Shown: positions 2,531 through 22,648 of the stretch, piece after piece
Position numbering within the stretch: the first letter of the stretch is position 1
How the letters are laid out: each line of letters starts with the position of its first letter
NCBI GenBank assembly: GCA_041663185.1
Contig: JBAZQY010000002.1
Coordinates: 10,629-74,628, forward strand
Length of the DNA: 64,000 nucleotides
Origin: Minisyncoccota bacterium
GTDB lineage: Bacteria > Patescibacteriota > Minisyncoccia > Phycocordibacterales > UBA9973
Direction of reading: 5' to 3'
The notes under the pieces: generated by a model
Database searches by the model: none
Seen by the model: the letters and a program-made list of their open reading frames with translations, nothing else
What the model was told of the DNA's origin: nothing
Position numbers and translations under genes: made by a program

Positions 2531-2575
2531 CTATTGACAGTACTGGTAACATTATTTTTTTGTTATAATAACTAT

Positions 2576-3184
2576 ATGAAAATATTACTTGCTACAAATA
2601 ATAAAGCTAAAATAGAAAGATTTAAAAGATTAATAAAAGTCATTGATTCAAATATTGAATTACTGTCTCCTTCTGAATTAGGAATTGAAATAATTAATAT
2701 AGAAGAAAATGGTAATACACTTATGGAAAATGCAGAATTAAAAGCGAGAGCATATTTAGGGAAAGTTGATTTTCCAATTTTATCCAATGACACAGGGTTT
2801 TATGTAGAAGGTGAAGGATTTATTGATGCCCCAAAAAGAAAAGCATTGGAGGGGTTAGATGAAAATAATTTATCCGAAGAAGAAATATCAAAAAAACTTT
2901 TAAATTTCTGGAAAGACATTGCAAGTAAATATGGTGGAAAAGTTGATGCAGCTTGGGTAGAAGCTTTTATTCTTTTATTGCCAAATGGAGAAGTAAAAAA
3001 ATCTGAATCAAGAAGAGAGGTAATTTTAACTAATCAAGAATTTGGAACCCCTCATATTAATTTTCCAGTTAGAGCTTTGTATTATTCTAAAATAACAAAC
3101 AAACCAGCTGTTTTACATACAGAAGAAGATGAAATTGTAGAATTAAAACCTGCTATAGATGCTATTTCTAAAATTTTAAAATAA
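2576..3184 (+). CDS. RdgB/Ham1-family non-canonical purine NTP pyrophosphatase (divergent)
   Basis: MKILLATNNKAKIERF and EENGNTLMENAELKARAYLGKVDFPILSNDTGFYVEG align to RdgB N-terminal motifs (LATGNxGK; EETGxTFxENAxLKAR; DDSGLxV). Start moved to ATG 2576, behind TATAAT 2566..2571, because the listed start abuts the tRNA. Confidence 0.55.
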   Translation: MKILLATNNKAKIERFKRLIKVIDSNIELLSPSELGIEIINIEENGNTLMENAELKARAYLGKVDFPILSNDTGFYVEGEGFIDAPKRKALEGLDENNLSEEEISKKLLNFWKDIASKYGGKVDAAWVEAFILLLPNGEVKKSESRREVILTNQEFGTPHINFPVRALYYSKITNKPAVLHTEEDEIVELKPAIDAISKILK

Positions 3185-3275
3185 ATCATTATTTATCCAT
3201 AAAAACAGTTCCAACAGCGACCCATACTGTCCGCCCAAATTCGGAATTAAAATTAATAGGTGTTATAATTAACCT

Positions 3276-3962
3276 ATGGAAAACATAAAAAATAACAAGT
3301 TTATATTTATTAGTTTGGCAATTATCGCATTTTCTTTATTAATTTCTGTAGCATTTTTTATTTCAGCTAAAGATTTTTCAAAACAGGGGTCATATGTTGA
3401 AGTCAAAGGTTTATCGGAAAAAATTGTTAAGGCTGATACAGCGATTTGGTCTATGAGTTTTGAGGTCAAGTCAAATAACATTGATACTTTATATGCTGAT
3501 ATCGAAAAGAATATTACAACCATTAAAGCCTTTTTAGTTGAAAAGGGTTTTGAGGCTTCCGAGGTTAATGTTGCACCGGTAAACATTTATCAAGAGACAT
3601 ACAAAGATGCAGCCTTCCGATATAATTCAACTAATCAAGTTTCCGTTTATACAAAAAAAGTTGACCTAGCCAAAGCTACATCAAACGAGACATTACTCTT
3701 GGTTAAAAAGGGAGTTGTTTTGAATCAAAATTATATTTCCTTTGAGTTCTCAGATATAAACAGTATTAAGCCGGAGATGTTGGCTGACGCAATTAAAAAT
3801 GCTCGCGATACGGCCTCGCAATTTGCAAATAATTCAGGTTCCTCTGTTGGCCAAGTAACTCGTGGTAATCAAGGTGTTTTTGATATAACAGACAAAGATC
3901 CTGGTTCACCTGAATATAAAAAAATTCGCCTTGTTTCAACTCTCCGTTTCTTATTAAAGTAA
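3276..3962 (+). CDS. SIMPL/DUF541-domain protein (periplasmic immunogenic protein family)
   Basis: N-terminal TM anchor, then a domain with the SIMPL-like pattern (VEVKGLSEKIVKADTAIWSMSFEV...NITTIKAFLVEKGF). Confidence 0.5.
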   Translation: MENIKNNKFIFISLAIIAFSLLISVAFFISAKDFSKQGSYVEVKGLSEKIVKADTAIWSMSFEVKSNNIDTLYADIEKNITTIKAFLVEKGFEASEVNVAPVNIYQETYKDAAFRYNSTNQVSVYTKKVDLAKATSNETLLLVKKGVVLNQNYISFEFSDINSIKPEMLADAIKNARDTASQFANNSGSSVGQVTRGNQGVFDITDKDPGSPEYKKIRLVSTLRFLLK

Positions 3963-4108: not shown

Positions 4109-5029
4109 CTATTTTAACAGCTCCTCTTGTTTTTTATGTGACGCTATAATAGCTTTTGTCACCTTATTCTTTCTAAACTGAGCTACTGTATCAATCAAAT
4201 TATCACTAACCTTAACATTAATTTTTGTAAAATTATTGTAATAAATTTCTATATTGTTTGGTAGAGTGTTTTCAAAAAAATTTATGATTTGATCATTACT
4301 TAAGTTTTTCCCATTAGCTTTTTCGTTTAAGAATTGAAGTTGATCATTGTATTTTAGTTTATAAAAATCTTCTTTTGCCTCATTAATATCATCAACTGTT
4401 TCTTTTATTTCTTCTGGTAAGTATGTTTTGTATAAACTAAGTCCCAACATTGAAAGCCCCTTAAAAACAGGGAACAGTATGCCTGGTATTTTTTTTGCAA
4501 TCACGATAGGAAATTTGCTTTCTTTTTGGGCTTTTTGTATAAATAGGAATAATTCAGAATCGGGGAATATCCATTCTCCATTTTTAAATAAGATGGTTAT
4601 GGGAATATCATTAAATTCTGCTTCTATCACAAAAGGGTGGCTTGAAATTAGTTTCACTTTTTCGAGATATCTTTTAAAGATCTTAATAATCAAATTTAAG
4701 GTTTTTTCTGAACTGCGGTTTTTTATTAAATAATCATTTACTTTTATCTTTTTATCTTTAATTTGTTTTATTCCAGGGATGTTCTGGTAACGAAGATCAA
4801 TAAATAGTTTTTCATCAGTAAGTTTTTTTATTATACGTGGGTCTATGCGTAAATTACCTGGACCAGTCTCACTGAATAAATAATATAATTCTGTTTCTGT
4901 TATAACTTTTGCTTTTGATCTTAAGTTTTCTAGTCTGTATTCAAAATAAATAGCCATTTCATTTATAGAAAGGGAAGATAAGGGTTGTTTGTTCAGTTTA
5001 TCTTTTACTTGTTTTAGTTCTTTTTTCAT
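4109..5029 (-). CDS. hypothetical protein (306 aa), no recognisable domain
   Basis: Long uninterrupted ORF with coding-like composition. Divergently oriented from the AbiE pair across a palindrome-rich intergenic region. Confidence 0.4.
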   Translation of the reverse strand: MKKELKQVKDKLNKQPLSSLSINEMAIYFEYRLENLRSKAKVITETELYYLFSETGPGNLRIDPRIIKKLTDEKLFIDLRYQNIPGIKQIKDKKIKVNDYLIKNRSSEKTLNLIIKIFKRYLEKVKLISSHPFVIEAEFNDIPITILFKNGEWIFPDSELFLFIQKAQKESKFPIVIAKKIPGILFPVFKGLSMLGLSLYKTYLPEEIKETVDDINEAKEDFYKLKYNDQLQFLNEKANGKNLSNDQIINFFENTLPNNIEIYYNNFTKINVKVSDNLIDTVAQFRKNKVTKAIIASHKKQEELLK

Positions 5030-5084
5030 ATAATTCTGATGTATATATAATATTATATATACACTCGAATTACAACAAATAAAC

Positions 5085-5108
5085 GTCCTTTATAATATTA
5101 TAAAGGAC
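5085..5108. promoter_or_regulatory. perfect 24-bp palindrome GTCCTTTATAATATTATAAAGGAC
   Basis: Read directly. Contains TATAAT on both strands. Lies in the 5' region of the minus-strand gene 4109..5029. Confidence 0.5.
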
Positions 5109-5118
5109 GAAAACACAA

Positions 5119-5140
5119 AGGCTTATAATATTATAAGCCT
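5119..5140. promoter_or_regulatory. perfect 22-bp palindrome AGGCTTATAATATTATAAGCCT (same TTATAATATTATAA core as 5085..5108)
   Basis: Read directly. Second copy of the same core, 10 bp downstream of the first. Confidence 0.5.
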
Positions 5141-5184
5141 TGCCTAATAATAACTAATTTAGTTATTCAGAGTTTATTTTGTCT

Positions 5185-5263
5185 AAATGCAACAAACAAC
5201 ATTTTAATAAAGTATATAAAATTATATACTTTGTCACGTATTAAAATGTTGTTTGTTGCATTT
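5185..5263. promoter_or_regulatory. 25-bp perfect inverted repeat (AAATGCAACAAACAACATTTTAATA / TATTAAAATGTTGTTTGTTGCATTT) enclosing an inner 9-bp-arm palindrome AGTATATAA-aa-TTATATACT; candidate AbiEi operator
   Basis: Read directly. Ends 60 bp upstream of the AbiEi-like start at 5326. Confidence 0.5.
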
Positions 5264-5325
5264 TCAGGCCATTTGTACTATTATTGTGACTGTAGGTCCC
5301 TTTAAAGGGGACATACAGTACATAT

Positions 5326-5931
5326 ATGGAAAATAAGCCAATAAAAGGAGAATATTTAGAGGTCTTGTTGAGATCTTCCAAAACCATCTTTTCATCAAAA
5401 GATGTTGCTTTAATGTGGGGAGAAGAGAAAGAAAATATAATAAAAAACAGGTTAAATAAGTATGTTAAATCTGGTAAATTATTTAAGGTCCGTCGCGGAT
5501 TATTTGCCAAAGATAAAAATTATAATCGTTTTGAATTAGCGACCAGGATTAATACACCCTCATATATTAGTTTTGAAACTGTCTTAGGCGAAGCCGGTAT
5601 GACCTTCCAACATTATGGGAATATTTTTGTTGCCTCGTATATTAATAGAGAAATGGAAGTTGATGGTCAAAAAATAACATTTGTTAGAATGAAAGATTAT
5701 GTCTTAAGTAATACTATTGGGATTGGAAATGAAAATGGATATGCTAAAGCAACCAAAGAGCGTGCATTTTTGGATCGTATGTACGTAAATAAAGATTATT
5801 ATTTTGATAATTTAAGTCCCTTGGATTGGGATAAGGTGTTTGAGATTTTACCAATTTATCATAACAAAAGTATGGTAAGTAAAGTCAAAAAACAGTATGA
5901 TAATTTTAATAATAAGTTAAATAAAAAATAA
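5326..5931 (+). CDS. AbiEi-like antitoxin/transcriptional regulator (type IV toxin-antitoxin system)
   Basis: 201-aa protein immediately upstream of, and translationally coupled to (1-nt gap), an AbiEii-type nucleotidyltransferase. Assignment is mainly by context. Confidence 0.45.
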   Translation: MENKPIKGEYLEVLLRSSKTIFSSKDVALMWGEEKENIIKNRLNKYVKSGKLFKVRRGLFAKDKNYNRFELATRINTPSYISFETVLGEAGMTFQHYGNIFVASYINREMEVDGQKITFVRMKDYVLSNTIGIGNENGYAKATKERAFLDRMYVNKDYYFDNLSPLDWDKVFEILPIYHNKSMVSKVKKQYDNFNNKLNKK

Positions 5932-5932
5932 A

Positions 5933-6628
5933 ATGACCTTAGATTACTCAAAACATAAAAATATAATGCTCCAAATATTGAAGGATATCTACTCCGATAC
6001 TTCTATTGCACCTTATCTTGGATTTAAGGGGGGCACTGCTGCACTTTTATTTTATGATTTAAATCGTAATTCTGTGGATCTTGATTTTGACTTATTGGAT
6101 GATAAAAAGGAAGAAGAAGTATTTAATAAAATTGGGAAGATTACTGAAAGTTATGGAACTATTACAGAATCAAAAATAAAACATTTCAACTTACTTAATG
6201 TTATTTCATATAAGAAAGGAGCCCAACAAATAAAAGTAGAAATAAATCGCAGGCAATTTGGTTCACGATATGAAATCAGGACATTGCTTGGTATTTCAAT
6301 GCTTGTAATGGTTAAAGAAGATATGTTTGCCCATAAGCTTATGGCAATGTATGAAAGAATCGAAAAAACTAGCCGAGATATTTTTGATGTTTATTTTTTC
6401 TTTAAAAATAATTGGGAGATAAATAAAAAGATAGTAGAAGAAAGATCAGGGATGTCATTCAAAGAAACTTTGATCAAGTGTATCGAAAAACTTGAAAAAA
6501 TGGATAACAAGCATATTTTAGATGGTCTTGGAGAATTAATATCTTCATCTCAAAAGGATTGGGCCCGTGAGAAACTTAAAGACGAAACCATATTTTTATT
6601 AAAATTAAATCTTGATACTGAAAAATAA
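5933..6628 (+). CDS. AbiEii/AbiGii-family nucleotidyltransferase toxin (DUF1814)
   Basis: N-terminal LGFKGGTAALLFYDLNRNSVDLDFDL matches the hallmark GGTAL...R.S.DLDF motif of AbiEii/DUF1814 nucleotidyltransferases. Confidence 0.65.
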   Translation: MTLDYSKHKNIMLQILKDIYSDTSIAPYLGFKGGTAALLFYDLNRNSVDLDFDLLDDKKEEEVFNKIGKITESYGTITESKIKHFNLLNVISYKKGAQQIKVEINRRQFGSRYEIRTLLGISMLVMVKEDMFAHKLMAMYERIEKTSRDIFDVYFFFKNNWEINKKIVEERSGMSFKETLIKCIEKLEKMDNKHILDGLGELISSSQKDWAREKLKDETIFLLKLNLDTEK

Positions 6629-17958: not shown

Positions 17959-17991
17959 GTTTGTTGATATGATATAATATAGTTGTATATT

Positions 17992-20751
17992 ATGCGTGAA
18001 AATAACTACCAAAAGTATATTCAATTTCTAAAAAAAGTTTTAATAAAACTTCGACCTAGATTTTCTTTCCACTACATTGCATATACAACTTTATTTACTC
18101 TTATTATTTTTTCTGTTATTCAATTAGTTTCCGCAACTACTCCAAACCCAGGGCATCCATGGAGTGAACTTGGTGATGGGGTTTTTGTCTTTACAAATAG
18201 CCAAACAGTCACTCCGTATACTTATACATTTCCAGCGGCAAACTCCACAGTTCTGACGACTAATGCGGCAGTGACCGTTGGACAAGGAGGAACTGGGCTT
18301 AATACCATTGCTTCAGGATCAATTTTGGCAGCTAATGCACTCGATACACTTTCAGCGATCACCTCAACAACTGGCACAAAAGTTTTGAAAAATACTGCGG
18401 GCACAATAAGTTGGGAGACAGATAATGGAATGGTTTACCCTGGTGCTGGCATTCCAAATTCCACCGGCAGTGCCTGGGGAACTTCATACTCAACTACAGG
18501 CACAGGCACAGTCGTTGCACTTGCAACTTCACCATCATTTACTACGCCATCACTTGGAGTAGCTTCTGGTACGTCAATTGATTTAGGTACAACAACTCTT
18601 CTCGGTTCTCGAGCTTTAACTGTTGATACTGGTGGAGTATTTAATATTAATATGGGAACGGCAGCAGGAGATGATTTTACTGTTGATACTGATTCACTAG
18701 TCGTAGAGGGGGATACGGGGAGAGTTGGAATTGGAATAAGTACTCCGGCATCTATCTTGGATATTCGCCCCAATACTGGATTAACAGATGTAGGTTTGAA
18801 TGTTCGCCAAACTTATACAGATGCTGGAAGCGGAAATTTTCAAACAGTCCTTAGAACTGAAGACCGAAATGGAACTGCTACTCTCTCTGTGGATTCAAGA
18901 GGACAGGATGGTGCTACTAAATTATCAACCGGAGGAGCTTGGTCAACTTTTGCAGCAGCAGATGCTATTGGTTATAGATATTTAACAAGTAGTAGTGGCG
19001 CTCAGGGAATGCAGGCCAAATATATATTAGTTGGCCCTACTTATTCAAGTGATATTTCAACTCTATCAGCAGGTGGAATATACGGAGGAATGATAGCAAG
19101 TAAAAATCTTTTACTGGAAAGTACTTCACATGCTACTAAAGGGTATGTCCTAATTCAATCAGGAGGAGGAAATACTGGTGTGGGAGGGATATCCACTCCT
19201 ACTGCTCGTCTTCATCTTCCTGCCGGTGCCTTCACTGTCTCGGCCGCACCTCTTAAATTTACTGCTGGCACAAACTTATTGACAGCTGAAGCCGGAGCGA
19301 TGGAATGGGATGGAACAAATCTTTTCATCACTCAAACAACAGGACCAACGAGAAAAAGAATTGCGTATGGCTCAGGAACTGCTAATGAAATTCCTTATTG
19401 GGTGGATTCAAGTACTCTTGGAACTTTGACAACTGCAACTTATCCATCCTTGACGGAACTTTCTTATGTCAAAGGTACAACAAGTGCAATTCAAACTCAA
19501 TTTACTGGCAAAGCAAATACAGCTCTTTCAAACTTGGCTTCAGTTGCGATAAATACATCTTTAGTTTCTGATACTAACAGCACAGATGACTTAGGAAGTT
19601 CATCAGTCTATTGGGCAAACACTTATACAAATACAATTTATGTGAACGCAACAAAAATTGGTGGAACAGCAGTTAGAGGCACAACCGAAGGTACAAATCA
19701 TTTAGATATTTTTGATGGCACGGCACCTGTGGGAACACTGACCAATGGAATATCACTTTATTCTACAGCCGGAGAACTTCGAGTTATGGATGCGGCCGGC
19801 AATGCGACGTTGTTATCGCCACACGAAAATATAAATAACTATTGGGTCTTTGATTCGACTAATCAAGGTACAGGAAAAAGTTTAGTTATAGATATGGAAT
19901 TGATGATGAAAAAATTAAATGAAACTTTTGGTTGGGATTTTGTTCATGAGACTCAAGATGGAATATCAATTGATACTTTAATGGCAGGTCTTGAAACAAA
20001 TATTGTTACTGATACATTTGAAGCCAATGGAGAAGTTACTTTCAATGGACTTGCATTCTTTAATGAAAATGTAAATTTTGCCAAAGGTATAAAATTCAGT
20101 GATGTTGCAGAATTTGAAGTTCCGCCACTTTTCAACAATGATACAGCCGGTTTTGCCATAATTAAAGAAGGGGCTAAATCAGTGCAAGTTTCTTTTGAAA
20201 ATCCATATTTAACGACACCGGTTGTCGCAACCAATATAACTTTTGAAAAAAATGAAGATATAGAATTTAATAGTGAAGACTTTTTCAATCAAGATGTTGA
20301 ATCGGTGGTGATGGATAAAGATCAAGAAGGTTTTACTATCGCCCTTAATCAACCGGCGCCAGTTGATATAAATTTTTCTTGGGTTGCCCTGGCAGTTAAA
20401 GATGTCAAAGTTTATGAAAGCGCGATTGAAGGTTTAGTGATTGAAGATATTGATACTGGTGGAGGAGATACGACAGAAGATACTATTAGTGATATAATTG
20501 AGGATACAACTGATGTGACTGATATCACAACTGATGATACTATTGTCGATACAACAGAAATTATCACGGAAGAAATTATTGAAGATAATACTGATATTAC
20601 AACCGAAGAAATTATCGAAGATAATACTGACACGACAACAGAAGAAATTATTGAAACAACAGAAGAAACAACTGATATTACTACTGATCAAATAGTTGAG
20701 ACAATTTCGAGTTCCGAAGCGACAATTTCTTCCGAAACATCAACTGAATAA
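17992..20751 (+). CDS. giant secreted Thr/Gly-rich surface protein with tail-fibre-like repeats and acidic C-terminal repeat tail
   Basis: Signal peptide/TM (FTLIIFSVIQLVSA). Repeated RVGIGISTPASILDI-type segments seen in fibre/tailspike proteins. Ends in a TEEIIEDNTD repeat. Start set at ATG 17992, behind TATAAT 17973..17978; the listed ORF uses TTG 17983. Confidence 0.6.
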   Translation: MRENNYQKYIQFLKKVLIKLRPRFSFHYIAYTTLFTLIIFSVIQLVSATTPNPGHPWSELGDGVFVFTNSQTVTPYTYTFPAANSTVLTTNAAVTVGQGGTGLNTIASGSILAANALDTLSAITSTTGTKVLKNTAGTISWETDNGMVYPGAGIPNSTGSAWGTSYSTTGTGTVVALATSPSFTTPSLGVASGTSIDLGTTTLLGSRALTVDTGGVFNINMGTAAGDDFTVDTDSLVVEGDTGRVGIGISTPASILDIRPNTGLTDVGLNVRQTYTDAGSGNFQTVLRTEDRNGTATLSVDSRGQDGATKLSTGGAWSTFAAADAIGYRYLTSSSGAQGMQAKYILVGPTYSSDISTLSAGGIYGGMIASKNLLLESTSHATKGYVLIQSGGGNTGVGGISTPTARLHLPAGAFTVSAAPLKFTAGTNLLTAEAGAMEWDGTNLFITQTTGPTRKRIAYGSGTANEIPYWVDSSTLGTLTTATYPSLTELSYVKGTTSAIQTQFTGKANTALSNLASVAINTSLVSDTNSTDDLGSSSVYWANTYTNTIYVNATKIGGTAVRGTTEGTNHLDIFDGTAPVGTLTNGISLYSTAGELRVMDAAGNATLLSPHENINNYWVFDSTNQGTGKSLVIDMELMMKKLNETFGWDFVHETQDGISIDTLMAGLETNIVTDTFEANGEVTFNGLAFFNENVNFAKGIKFSDVAEFEVPPLFNNDTAGFAIIKEGAKSVQVSFENPYLTTPVVATNITFEKNEDIEFNSEDFFNQDVESVVMDKDQEGFTIALNQPAPVDINFSWVALAVKDVKVYESAIEGLVIEDIDTGGGDTTEDTISDIIEDTTDVTDITTDDTIVDTTEIITEEIIEDNTDITTEEIIEDNTDTTTEEIIETTEETTDITTDQIVETISSSEATISSETSTE
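20569..20665 (+). repeat. 36-bp in-frame tandem repeat (about 2.3 copies, GAAGAAATTAT[T/C]GAAGATAATACTGA...) encoding TEEIIEDNTDxTT
   Basis: Units 20569..20604 and 20605..20640 are near-identical. The third copy is partial. Confidence 0.7.
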
Positions 20752-20772: not shown

Positions 20773-21174
20773 ATGAAAAAAAGAAAAGTTATTAATATTT
20801 TAATTATTATTATTGCACTAGTGGCTTTGGCTTTTAGTTTTTATTTTTATTATAAATTAAATAAAATAGAAAATAATTCTGGAGTTATGATGCAGAAAGA
20901 TTTGGAAGATCTTTTATCAAAAGTTGGGGAACATTATCTTTTGCCGCAAGGAGAAGAACCAACATTAGCAACAGTTTCGGATCCAGAAGTTTTAAAGGGT
21001 CAATCATTTTTTCTTTCATCAGAAAAAGGGGATAAAGTTTTAATTTTTACTAAGGCTCGAAAAGCAGTACTCTATCGTCCAAGTATTGATAAAATTATTG
21101 AAATTACAACTGTTGATCAAAAAACAACTCCTCCAGCATCAACTAATGGACCAATCGGCAATGAGAATTTTTAA
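20773..21174 (+). CDS. small N-terminally anchored hypothetical protein
   Basis: Lys-rich start, one TM helix, then a soluble domain. Overlaps the next gene start by 14 nt in another frame. Confidence 0.35.
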   Translation: MKKRKVINILIIIIALVALAFSFYFYYKLNKIENNSGVMMQKDLEDLLSKVGEHYLLPQGEEPTLATVSDPEVLKGQSFFLSSEKGDKVLIFTKARKAVLYRPSIDKIIEITTVDQKTTPPASTNGPIGNENF

Positions 21175-22648
21175 CTATTTTATTTTAATATTAATACTGC
21201 CATTACTTATTTGGCCATCACCTATTTATGCTTTTGATACAGGAGTGGTTAATCCGGGAACAATGGCCGATGATGCGGCGGTAGGAACTGCCTCTTGGAC
21301 TTTTCCTGATGGAGCAAAAACAAGTAATAATAGTCATGCATATGCATCAAGTACATCAACTGAAACTACTCATTATTTAAAAGCTACAAATTTTGGTTTT
21401 TCTATTCCGACTGGAGCCACAATAAATGGTATTTTAGTTGAGATTGAAAGATATTATGAAACATTAGGAGCGGGAACGGTAAAAGATTCAGAGGTTAAAA
21501 TTATAAAATCAGACGGAACTATTGGCACGACCGATAAGGCAGATACTATTAATGTTTGGCCCCTATCTGATACGTATAAATCTTACGGTTCTTCTTCTGA
21601 TTTGTGGGGAGAGACATGGGCATATTCAGATATAAACGATGCTGATTTTGGTGTTGTTTTGAGCGCCAGTCTTTTGGATGATTTTCCTTTTGCTTATGTT
21701 GACCACATTCGGATTACTGTTTATTACAGTACGGGATTTTCTTGTTCTGTAACTACAGCTGTAGGTTGTTCTGGTACAGTTATTCTTCGAATGTCTGGAA
21801 GTACCAACGCTCACCCAGAACTACCGAGCGAATCGAATGCTAATTATGCCAGTAATGTAGTTTGTTGTACTGGAATTGTCGGTTTAGGTAATTCTTGTTC
21901 TGGAAATTATGCAATTGTTGGAAAATTATCTTCTGCAACAAATGGGCACTTTCAAGAAAATACTTACGGAACCTATGGAAATAATTTTTGTTTATCAAGT
22001 ACCACTCCTGGAGATGAAATAACAATTGGATATCAAAACACTAATTGTTCGGGGTATGATACAACTTTATTTTCTACTTCTTCCTCGGATAATGGAACAG
22101 TCGGAGATGGTAATGCTTATACTCGCAAAATTTGTGGCACCGTAACTCCACTTTATATTTCTTTTTCTATTTCAGATAATTCAATTTATTTTGGAAACCT
22201 TCGATCATCTGGGGCCTGTTGGGCTCAAGGTACAGACCCAGGAGCTGTAGTTTGTCCAAGTCAGACAGAGACAGAAGCATTTAATATGACAGCCAGCACT
22301 AATGCAACTTCTGGTTATAGTATAACAGTACAAGGCCCGACACTTACCTTAGATGGAGGAGGAGATACTATAACTCCACTAGGTTCAAATACATTTTCTA
22401 ATCCTGGCACTGAACAATTTGGTATTAGGTTTACGGCAACTGGTGGTGCGGGTACAGTTACTGTACCATATGCAGCTTCTGGTTATGCTTATGTTGCCGA
22501 TGCTAATACTTCTGATGAAGTAGCGTCTTCTGTAGGTGATTCGGCTACGACTACTTACTCAGCTCGATATATTGCCAATATTTCTAATGTCACAGAAGCC
22601 GGTACTTATTCTGCCAATCACACCTATATACTGACAGGGACTTTTTAG
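21161..22648 (+). CDS. secreted Cys/Thr-rich surface protein, paralog A (shares ~160-aa C-terminal domain with 22762..23829)
   Basis: Signal peptide MRIFNYFILILILPLLIWPSPIYA. C-terminal ISFSISDNSIYFGNLRSSGACWAQGTDPGAVVCP...TYSARYIANISNVTEAGTYS is near-collinear with the next gene. Confidence 0.55.
   Translation: MRIFNYFILILILPLLIWPSPIYAFDTGVVNPGTMADDAAVGTASWTFPDGAKTSNNSHAYASSTSTETTHYLKATNFGFSIPTGATINGILVEIERYYETLGAGTVKDSEVKIIKSDGTIGTTDKADTINVWPLSDTYKSYGSSSDLWGETWAYSDINDADFGVVLSASLLDDFPFAYVDHIRITVYYSTGFSCSVTTAVGCSGTVILRMSGSTNAHPELPSESNANYASNVVCCTGIVGLGNSCSGNYAIVGKLSSATNGHFQENTYGTYGNNFCLSSTTPGDEITIGYQNTNCSGYDTTLFSTSSSDNGTVGDGNAYTRKICGTVTPLYISFSISDNSIYFGNLRSSGACWAQGTDPGAVVCPSQTETEAFNMTASTNATSGYSITVQGPTLTLDGGGDTITPLGSNTFSNPGTEQFGIRFTATGGAGTVTVPYAASGYAYVADANTSDEVASSVGDSATTTYSARYIANISNVTEAGTYSANHTYILTGTF

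Follow-up and report, generated by a model that had tools for sequence, protein, structure and literature searches.

What is a gene pair that resembles an abortive-infection system doing in the chromosome of a bacterium of the Candidate Phyla Radiation (CPR), and how far does the resemblance hold? The question is raised by a 64-kb stretch of contig JBAZQY010000002.1 (Minisyncoccota bacterium, assembly GCA_041663185.1), hereafter the window, whose positions serve as coordinates throughout and whose guanine plus cytosine (GC) content is 33.6%. An earlier note on this DNA had read two adjacent genes as an AbiE toxin–antitoxin (TA) pair, with a DUF1814 nucleotidyltransferase as the AbiEii toxin and the gene before it in the position of the AbiEi antitoxin. 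The evidence gathered here makes it very probable that the pair is a functional two-gene AbiE module of a Candidatus Paceibacterota chromosome, in which AbiEi, antitoxin and repressor, precedes AbiEii, the toxin. Divergent from it lies an unannotated gene for a 306-amino-acid (306-aa) protein, p306, whose linkage to AbiE and whose presence in a family of recombinase-bearing elements have, as far as the searched literature shows, not been described.

The toxin gene is the more readily identified of the two. Its 231-aa product, a DUF1814 nucleotidyltransferase (COG2253), matches the Pfam family AbiEii (PF08843; E-value 1.7e-15, 58.0 bits for a gathering cut-off of 22.5) and, over residues 5-226 of 231, the PADLOC AbiEii model PDLC02324 (E 7.4e-79). 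The identical protein, from a metagenome-assembled genome (MAG), bears at NCBI the name nucleotidyl transferase AbiEii/AbiGii toxin family protein (Candidatus Paceibacterota bacterium). The stretch quoted by the earlier note, LGFKGGTAALLFYDLNRNSVDLDFDL, was correctly read and occupies residues 29-54. All four motifs with which Dy et al. 2014 (PMC3985639) defined AbiEii proteins can be recognised: motifs I and II, the Pol-beta nucleotidyltransferase signature hG[G/S]...DhD with its preceding arginine, as F31-K32-G33-G34 and as R45 with D49-L-D51; motif III (KLxAaxxR) as K135-L-M-A-M-Y-E-R142, with the aromatic residue one position off; and motif IV (+DxxD) as R148-D149-I-F-D152. Their key residues are conserved at 95% or more across 78 homologues. 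The same degree of conservation is seen for S47, two residues before the first catalytic aspartate (R45-N-S47-V-D49-L-D51), which is predicted to be the phospho-acceptor and the equivalent of T65 in the AbiEii of Streptococcus agalactiae. The sole solved relative found by sequence is Helicobacter pylori JHP933 (PDB 4o8s, E 7e-6). A housekeeping nucleotidyltransferase was ruled out, no such family being matched in Pfam, PADLOC or NCBIfam.

The upstream gene was likewise well placed by the earlier note. Its 201-aa product matches the PADLOC AbiEi model PDLC02255 over residues 9-190 (E 1.1e-55) as well as 19 further AbiEi models, and a match to PF13338 is precomputed for some of its homologues that are 71-82% identical. 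It is very likely an AbiEi protein, with a predicted N-terminal winged helix and a C-terminal neutralisation domain, although the identification is formally incomplete for reasons given below.

The two genes travel together. By scanning one genome per species we obtained 80 AbiE loci, from about a dozen CPR classes and a few non-CPR MAGs, mostly belonging to Paceibacteria, Saccharibacteria, Magasanikbacteria, Moranibacteria, Kerfeldbacteria, Komeilibacteria, Falkowbacteria, Peregrinibacteria, Gracilibacteria, Kaiserbacteria and Roizmanbacteria. Of 81 loci, 80 have an AbiEi homologue immediately before AbiEii, and the remaining one ends at a contig edge. Both genes evolve under strong purifying selection in all comparisons, with ratios of non-synonymous to synonymous substitution rates (dN/dS) of 0.04-0.15. 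More than 7,700 database clusters belong to the AbiEii subfamily; identity is 76-100% for the 120 best, which come from Patescibacteria where named. The earlier note had considered it striking that a presumed symbiont with a tiny genome keeps such a pair; the number of clusters, their spread over CPR classes and earlier CPR reports take away the surprise. Indeed, a survey of groundwater bacterial MAGs counts AbiE among the five most prevalent, 'first-line' defence families, each found in over 10% of the genomes, and reports a high defence density in CPR, highest in Paceibacteria (PMC12259885). Abortive-infection and restriction systems were reported in CPR lineages in 2016 (PMC4742961), and an AbiEi-AbiEii pair was earlier noted in a patescibacterium of a cultured consortium. 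With an NCBI-named toxin, PADLOC models and thousands of Patescibacteria homologues, the AbiE pair itself is already known.

Its surroundings are not conserved. No gene flanking the pair in the window recurs beside AbiE in the 80 other loci, and the handful of neighbours that do recur have housekeeping functions (YchF, ValRS and BipA, for example). Because the flanking genes differ in every genome, the pair behaves as a self-contained module that would have been moved horizontally. Carriage by phages or plasmids is unsupported: no relatives of AbiEii or p306 were found in IMG/VR, and a tblastn search of the PLSDB plasmids returned no match. Two observations on related loci may be recorded here. 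In locus L009, a 263-bp insertion between abiEi and abiEii (918-1180) encodes a small GIY-YIG-like open reading frame (…YTGYASDLKERLRLHNDGK…); related frames lie near the AbiE pair in six loci (L009, L026, L032, L055, L056 and L076), a recurrence suggestive of a mobile, homing-endonuclease-like gene that is common in these genomes. Loci L019 and L022 represent one AbiE locus found, with identical upstream sequence and in opposite orientation, at both ends of the 23.8-kb contig JBDRFT010000036.1 (1-7326 and 16509-23834), either as a large terminal inverted duplication or as an assembly artefact.

The junction between the two genes, on the same strand, reads AAA-TAA-A-ATG, leaving a spacer of 1 nucleotide (nt). 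Elsewhere the two frames overlap by 4 nt (ATGA) in 24 loci and are 1-8 nt apart in most others. The spacer given in the earlier note is confirmed and a tight junction is kept across the family; the translational coupling that the note added would be an inference from this spacing. As a separate observation, no Shine-Dalgarno-like sequence precedes abiEi (5320-5325), p306 (5030-5039) or abiEii (5915-5932). Because such sequences are also missing in related loci, initiation would be independent of Shine-Dalgarno pairing, and abiEii is presumably translated by reinitiation.

How the operon may be controlled is suggested by the DNA just before it. A 31-bp palindrome, ACTGTAGGTCCCTTT-A-AAGGGGACATACAGT, is centred 22 nt before the abiEi ATG, with arms complementary at 13 of 15 positions, and its pattern is unique in the window (0.02 occurrences expected). 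In most of 57 distinct loci a palindrome with the same outer ACTG/CAGT is found at the same position, the central TTTAAA also being conserved. The inner pairs covary, remaining complementary in 32-42 of the 57 loci when 15-26 would be expected from column composition. The divergence of the half-sites tracks that of the AbiEi N-terminal domain when the C-terminal domain is controlled for (partial Spearman rho 0.51, a value reached in 0 of 2000 Mantel permutations), as opposed to a partial rho of 0.016 for the C-terminal domain with the N-terminal one controlled. The palindrome is therefore likely to be the AbiEi operator, a site that coevolves with the DNA-binding domain of the protein. Alignment with related loci, where -10 boxes often read TGnTATAAT at the same offset, places a promoter with a -35 box TTGCAT (5256-5261), a 17-nt spacer and a -10 box TATTAT (5279-5284), giving a predicted start site near 5291, and the palindrome overlaps this -10 and start region. 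In known AbiEi systems the operator consists of paired inverted repeats that cover promoter and start site and are occupied by two monomers (PMC7319586), a design with which the layout proposed here would agree.

The earlier note had also pointed to inverted repeats upstream of the pair as partners of AbiEi. These repeats are real, and the larger ones belong elsewhere. The 296-nt region between p306 and abiEi holds three extended perfect palindromes built on a TATAATATTATA core, and all three exact copies of this core in the window fall within it. Among related loci, the core class is present in 29 of 29 distinct p306-linked intergenic regions, with two or more copies in 25 of them, as against 0 of 67 AbiE loci without p306, and it is also found upstream of distant p306 homologues. 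On this distribution the larger palindromes were rejected as AbiEi operators and are assigned to p306, as judged from sequence comparison. Their outer stems differ between copies and loci yet remain complementary, a sign of covariation. Palindrome 2 carries a terminator-like flag on the minus strand and folds as RNA at -12.8 kcal/mol (z -6.7). The TATAATATTATA palindromes may act as a p306 operator, a promoter, leader hairpins or terminators, or an origin-like site. Closer to abiEi lies a perfect inverted repeat of 79 nt (arms 5185-5209 and 5239-5263), whose right arm contains the putative abiE -35 box and which folds at -35.5 kcal/mol on either strand (z -10.7). It is present in locus L144, where several differences in the arms stay complementary, and absent in L142, and it looks like a maintained inverted duplication of promoter-proximal sequence. 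A search of the intergenic region for known RNA families (Rfam) gave only sub-threshold miRNA-like hairpin matches.

What p306 itself might be is harder to say. It had no match in Pfam, PADLOC, NCBIfam or PHROGs, and nothing was added by searching the PDB with its sequence profile or by running Pfam on each family member and on 10 remote homologues. The family is small, with 77 clusters and 117 representatives among 1.84 billion proteins. The AlphaFold2 (AF2) model of p306 is confident (mean predicted local distance difference test, pLDDT, 91; predicted template modelling score, pTM, 0.89). Its central alpha/beta domain gives recurrent weak matches to restriction-endonuclease-like folds (E above 1e-3, template modelling (TM) scores 0.19-0.27), among them splicing endonuclease, EndoMS/NucS, the Cap4 nuclease domain, MspJI, Hjc and phage 'restriction endonuclease' models. 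An Mrr-type or PD-(D/E)xK nuclease was nevertheless rejected: hhalign against Escherichia coli Mrr gave a probability of 0.06, and no conserved D...(D/E)xK triad was found in the family, E136 being present in 26 and D157 in 27 of 41 sequences and the strand reading I-A-K-K.

The linkage of p306 to AbiE is more telling than its fold. In 35 of the 41 informative loci, those with enough sequence upstream of p306, an AbiEi-AbiEii pair is the divergent neighbour, 142-184 nt away. Of the six loci that seemed to lack one, three proved to have AbiE pairs from other subfamilies, raising the count with AbiE adjacent to 38 of 41, and one carries a HipA-type module. The AbiE pairs beside p306 span at least four AbiE subfamilies. 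The closest p306 relatives of the window, 73-87% identical, sit in differing contexts without the element backbone genes described below, and p306 is nonetheless under purifying selection there (dN/dS 0.09-0.14). The p306 of locus L142 is 86% identical to that of the window, whereas the adjacent AbiEi is only 61% identical, from which it follows that AbiE modules have been exchanged beside a conserved p306. As a further observation, a Paceibacterota locus (L008) retains, immediately before its AbiE pair, a remnant of 50 codons of the p306 C terminus (3171-3320), with 74% identity to the protein of the window, implying that p306 can be lost while AbiE stays.

In most of the longer p306 loci an integrative element comes into view. 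The side of p306 away from AbiE carries small conserved genes, for DUF5659, a SpoVG-like protein and a replication-initiator-like protein, with a large serine integrase beyond them. These genes, together with one for a 287-aa protein and with p306, form a backbone in which either the SpoVG-like protein or DUF5659 is present. The cargo downstream of AbiEii varies: an EcoRI-type methylase accompanied by GmrSD and a KAP NTPase, a type III-like (N6_N4) methylase with a ResIII helicase, SNF2/PLD with an Eco57I-type enzyme, or, in L102, an OLD/AriA-like ATPase. Judged by gene content over about 6 kb either side of p306, these loci (L082, L084-L087, L089, L091, L092, L097, L098, L100, L107 and L111-L113) constitute a Patescibacteria family of integrative elements with a region of defence cargo; none were found in IMG/VR. 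The window holds neither the integrase nor the backbone genes over its 64 kb, no flanking direct (att-like) repeats were found around the block of p306 and AbiE, and the GC content of the block is only slightly low (z -1.0 to -1.5). A place within a complete element was accordingly rejected for the window block.

Some results weigh against the reading of the pair as a self-regulated AbiE module and have to be set beside it. Of the profiles proposed by the earlier note, PF08843 scored above its cut-off, and PADLOC models match both genes, whereas the 201-aa protein stays below the cut-offs of NCBIfam TAA_AbiEi (E 2e-8, 34 bits for 150) and Pfam AbiEi_4 (residues 14-61, E 0.01, 16.4 bits for 25); its assignment to AbiEi rests on the PADLOC models. 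Neither this protein nor a 40-sequence profile retrieved a solved AbiEi from the PDB by sequence, and its AF2 model is poor (pLDDT 58, pTM 0.42), with moderate confidence at residues 20-70 and 140-200 only, because the alignment is shallow. Searched with Foldseek, this weak model has at rank 2 the S. agalactiae AbiEi (6Y8Q; E 0.067, TM 0.34-0.36), which has the top TM-score among matches covering most of the protein, a likeness that is only suggestive. For the abiE promoter, weak and reached by alignment, the -35 box agrees with the consensus at only 3 of 6 positions and the consensus scan did not list it. Toxicity, neutralisation, DNA binding, tRNA (transfer RNA) modification and phage defence are, moreover, inferred throughout. 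One could then argue that the pair is no TA system, the 231-aa protein being a nucleotidyltransferase of housekeeping function or one that has lost its activity, and the 201-aa protein, labelled 'hypothetical' at NCBI and below the Pfam and NCBIfam cut-offs for AbiEi, an unrelated regulator. This is hardly credible, as the catalytic motifs of AbiEii are all intact and conserved, both genes have AbiE profile matches, with no housekeeping family matched and twenty PADLOC AbiEi models recognising the partner, and the pairing is strict. The patchy, context-free distribution is typical of mobile TA or defence modules, and neither an essential cellular function nor vertical syntenic conservation across Paceibacteria was seen. 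The proximal palindrome, for its part, could work as RNA, forming a hairpin where the abiE messenger begins and affecting stability or masking the initiation of translation, instead of as a protein-bound operator. The predicted start would place nearly all of it in the 5' untranslated region, where a hairpin of -19 kcal/mol (z -4.9) with covarying inner pairs could form, with no Shine-Dalgarno sequence visible between it and the ATG. An RNA helix, however, should accept strand-specific wobble alone, and G/T and A/C mismatches are equally frequent (57 and 54), so that recognition as double-stranded DNA is indicated. The outer ACTG/CAGT is kept in sequence beyond mere pairing; the half-site covaries specifically with the DNA-binding domain of AbiEi, known members of which bind such repeats; and in several loci the palindrome reaches across the -10 box, which would go untranscribed. 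We hold the hairpin to be improbable.

Two further readings accept the AbiE identity and differ on the company it keeps or the reason for keeping it. In one, p306 would be the partner of AbiE in a three-component system: it might sense infection or provide the trigger, be a second effector, or regulate by binding DNA at the TATAATATTATA palindromes. The frequency of the divergent adjacency across AbiE subfamilies, its persistence under purifying selection in contexts without a recombinase, the swapping of AbiE modules beside a retained p306 and a control region of 142-296 nt shared by the two transcription units, with palindromes specific to p306, all speak for it. Against it, more than 95% of the AbiE subfamily lacks p306 (some 77 clusters for more than 7,700; p306 in 2 of the 80 genome loci, plus one remnant), and AbiE consequently does not need it. 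One p306 locus has a HipA-type module in place of AbiE, p306 has no conserved catalytic triad, and the adjacency could simply follow from a set place on the border of a mobile-element backbone. On balance this is unlikely, if worth keeping in view, and we consider it quite doubtful that p306 is a functional third partner of AbiE in Patescibacteria in the specific sense of a DNA-binding protein of nuclease fold that has TATAATATTATA-core sites of its own. Were that true, p306 and AbiE would make an undescribed three-gene cassette for defence or mobility and not a TA pair beside a passenger gene, and p306 would be a trigger or sensor, a second effector or a mobility factor, its pairing kept across at least four AbiE subfamilies and through the loss of the recombinase element. 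The other reading has the same biochemistry as the one we prefer and differs in the selective reason alone: AbiE would be an addiction module whose loss is toxic, and the window block (p306, AbiEi and AbiEii) the surviving core of an element, maintained selfishly and not for phage defence. Elsewhere the same core does sit in elements with the serine integrase, replication-initiator-like, SpoVG-like and DUF5659 genes, all of which the window lacks; AbiE stabilises plasmids (PMC3985639); the block is slightly low in GC; and S. agalactiae AbiE gave no protection in E. coli against 32 coliphages (10.64898/2026.01.19.700257), which also counts against our view, since a defence role is then not assured even for the model system. 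Yet where the element has its recombinase, the genes after AbiEii are of restriction-modification, GmrSD, KAP NTPase, SNF2/PLD or OLD-like type, as in a defence island; the greater part of the subfamily lies among housekeeping genes without a nearby p306 or integrase; and no att-like repeats were found to flank the window block. Selfish maintenance is a serious possibility, which we place somewhat below an even chance. The two roles are not mutually exclusive, and sequence does not decide between phage defence and selfish stabilisation.

Under the preferred reading of a functional AbiE module, the mechanism can be sketched by homology with S. agalactiae AbiE and Mycobacterium tuberculosis MenAT. 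AbiEii would be a Mg2+-dependent nucleotidyltransferase that adds nucleotides to the 3' ends of tRNAs, causing a reversible arrest of translation. The C-terminal domain of AbiEi would neutralise it, probably by binding and inducing the auto-phosphorylation of Ser47. Two AbiEi molecules, seated through their N-terminal winged helices on the inverted half-sites of the proximal palindrome, would repress the operon, and abiEii would be translated by termination and reinitiation over the TAA-A-ATG junction. The whole would act as a self-stabilising, horizontally moved cassette that aborts phage infection, prevents its own loss, or both, and that forms in this genome a three-gene block with p306. 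The coordinates of these features are collected in Table 1.

Table 1. Features of the AbiE locus and its p306 side, as feature, window positions, strand and remark
abiEi, antitoxin and autorepressor (putative), 201 aa	5326..5931	+	ATG start; PADLOC AbiEi match and place upstream of AbiEii
abiEii, DUF1814 nucleotidyltransferase toxin (putative), 231 aa	5933..6628	+	ATG start; PF08843 and PADLOC matches
p306, unannotated 306-aa gene, divergent from abiEi	4109..5029	-	conserved companion of AbiE pairs
Proximal 31-bp palindrome, likely AbiEi operator	5289..5319	.	centre 5304
Predicted abiE promoter	5256..5284	+	alignment with related loci
Extended palindrome 1, TATAATATTATA core (TGTATATATAAT/ATTATATATACA)	5040..5063	.	
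Extended palindrome 2 (CGTCCTTTATAAT/ATTATAAAGGACG)	5084..5109	.	
Extended palindrome 3 (AAGGCTTATAAT/ATTATAAGCCTT)	5118..5141	.	
Large perfect inverted repeat around a fourth core palindrome (5209-5232)	5185..5263	.	25-nt arms

The setting of the locus in the window is a plain one. Within about 10 kb of the AbiE pair lie housekeeping genes for SecDF, LemA, an M48 peptidase, Ham1, SIMPL, cysteine desulfurase, a thioredoxin-like protein, a ferric reductase, a UvrD/PD-(D/E)xK helicase and PheST. The earlier note had proposed looking for other defence functions among the neighbours; none were present within that distance or among the large open reading frames of the window, which are housekeeping too, and the surroundings are not a defence island. 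On other aspects of the window, two frames on the plus strand, 17983-20751 (922 aa, TTG start) and 21086-22648 (520 aa), have no Pfam match at E <= 1e-5 and lie in a GC-richer stretch (about 0.40, for a window mean of 0.336). A tRNA-Ser(GGA) gene (2444-2531) abuts the listed TTG start of the Ham1-family frame (2534-3184). The public contig has this gene called with 14 codons fewer (202 instead of 216 aa), so the listed start is probably an artefact of the extension of the reading frame.

Taken for itself, the pair is a standard, catalogued AbiE module, apparently functional in a CPR genome; it agrees with published surveys and changes little. The likely operator and putative promoter would give a model of regulation for a very large and unstudied AbiE subfamily, backed by the coevolution of half-site and winged helix. 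The p306 family adds a small 'dark' family with a confidently predicted structure and palindromes of its own, associated with AbiE inside serine-recombinase elements. The mobile elements of Patescibacteria are poorly described, and p306 offers a concrete handle on one family of them.

Comparison with known systems places the window module within a broad family. H. pylori JHP933 (PDB 4O8S/4OK0) aligns across motifs I-IV, including GxTA..LNRxSxDLDFD and RDlfD, with about 25% identity, and no TA role has been demonstrated for it in the data considered. The PADLOC models PDLC02255 and PDLC02324 match the window proteins over nearly their full length, the subfamily being thereby already catalogued, as a two-gene system without p306 or the recombinase-element context. 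The MenAT systems of M. tuberculosis (MenT1/MenT3; Rv2827c-Rv2826c) have no pairwise sequence match to the window, their MenA antitoxins and Rv2827c are larger, and Rv2827c binds four repeats with negative cooperativity. They nevertheless share DUF1814 nucleotidyltransferase toxins, which modify the acceptor ends of tRNAs and are inactivated when the antitoxin induces their auto-phosphorylation, at S78 in MenT3, and COG5340-type antitoxins that autoregulate through inverted repeats. Another parallel in design is S. agalactiae AbiE. There, AbiEi binds AbiEii and induces the auto-phosphorylation of T65 (R63-x-T65-x-D67-x-D69), whereas un-phosphorylated AbiEii transfers UMP or CMP to tRNAs (10.64898/2026.01.19.700257). 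The AbiE identity given by the earlier note stands, and its type IV label is, with this preprint, under revision to type VII. Unlike in S. agalactiae, the window toxin is shorter (231 aa), has D152 at the position of D192 and would use a serine in place of threonine as phospho-acceptor; 6Y8Q is beyond phmmer or profile detection from the window AbiEi; and the proposed operator is one 31-bp palindrome, about 43-47 bp in some relatives, instead of two 23-bp repeats 3 bp apart. Both have a bicistronic operon that begins with the antitoxin gene and whose junction is tight or overlapping (4 nt of overlap in S. agalactiae; PMC3985639), toxin motifs I-IV with R-x-[S/T]-x-D-x-D, a two-domain antitoxin (predicted in the window) and, a short way before the ATG, inverted repeats that cover the promoter and start site (likewise predicted in the window).

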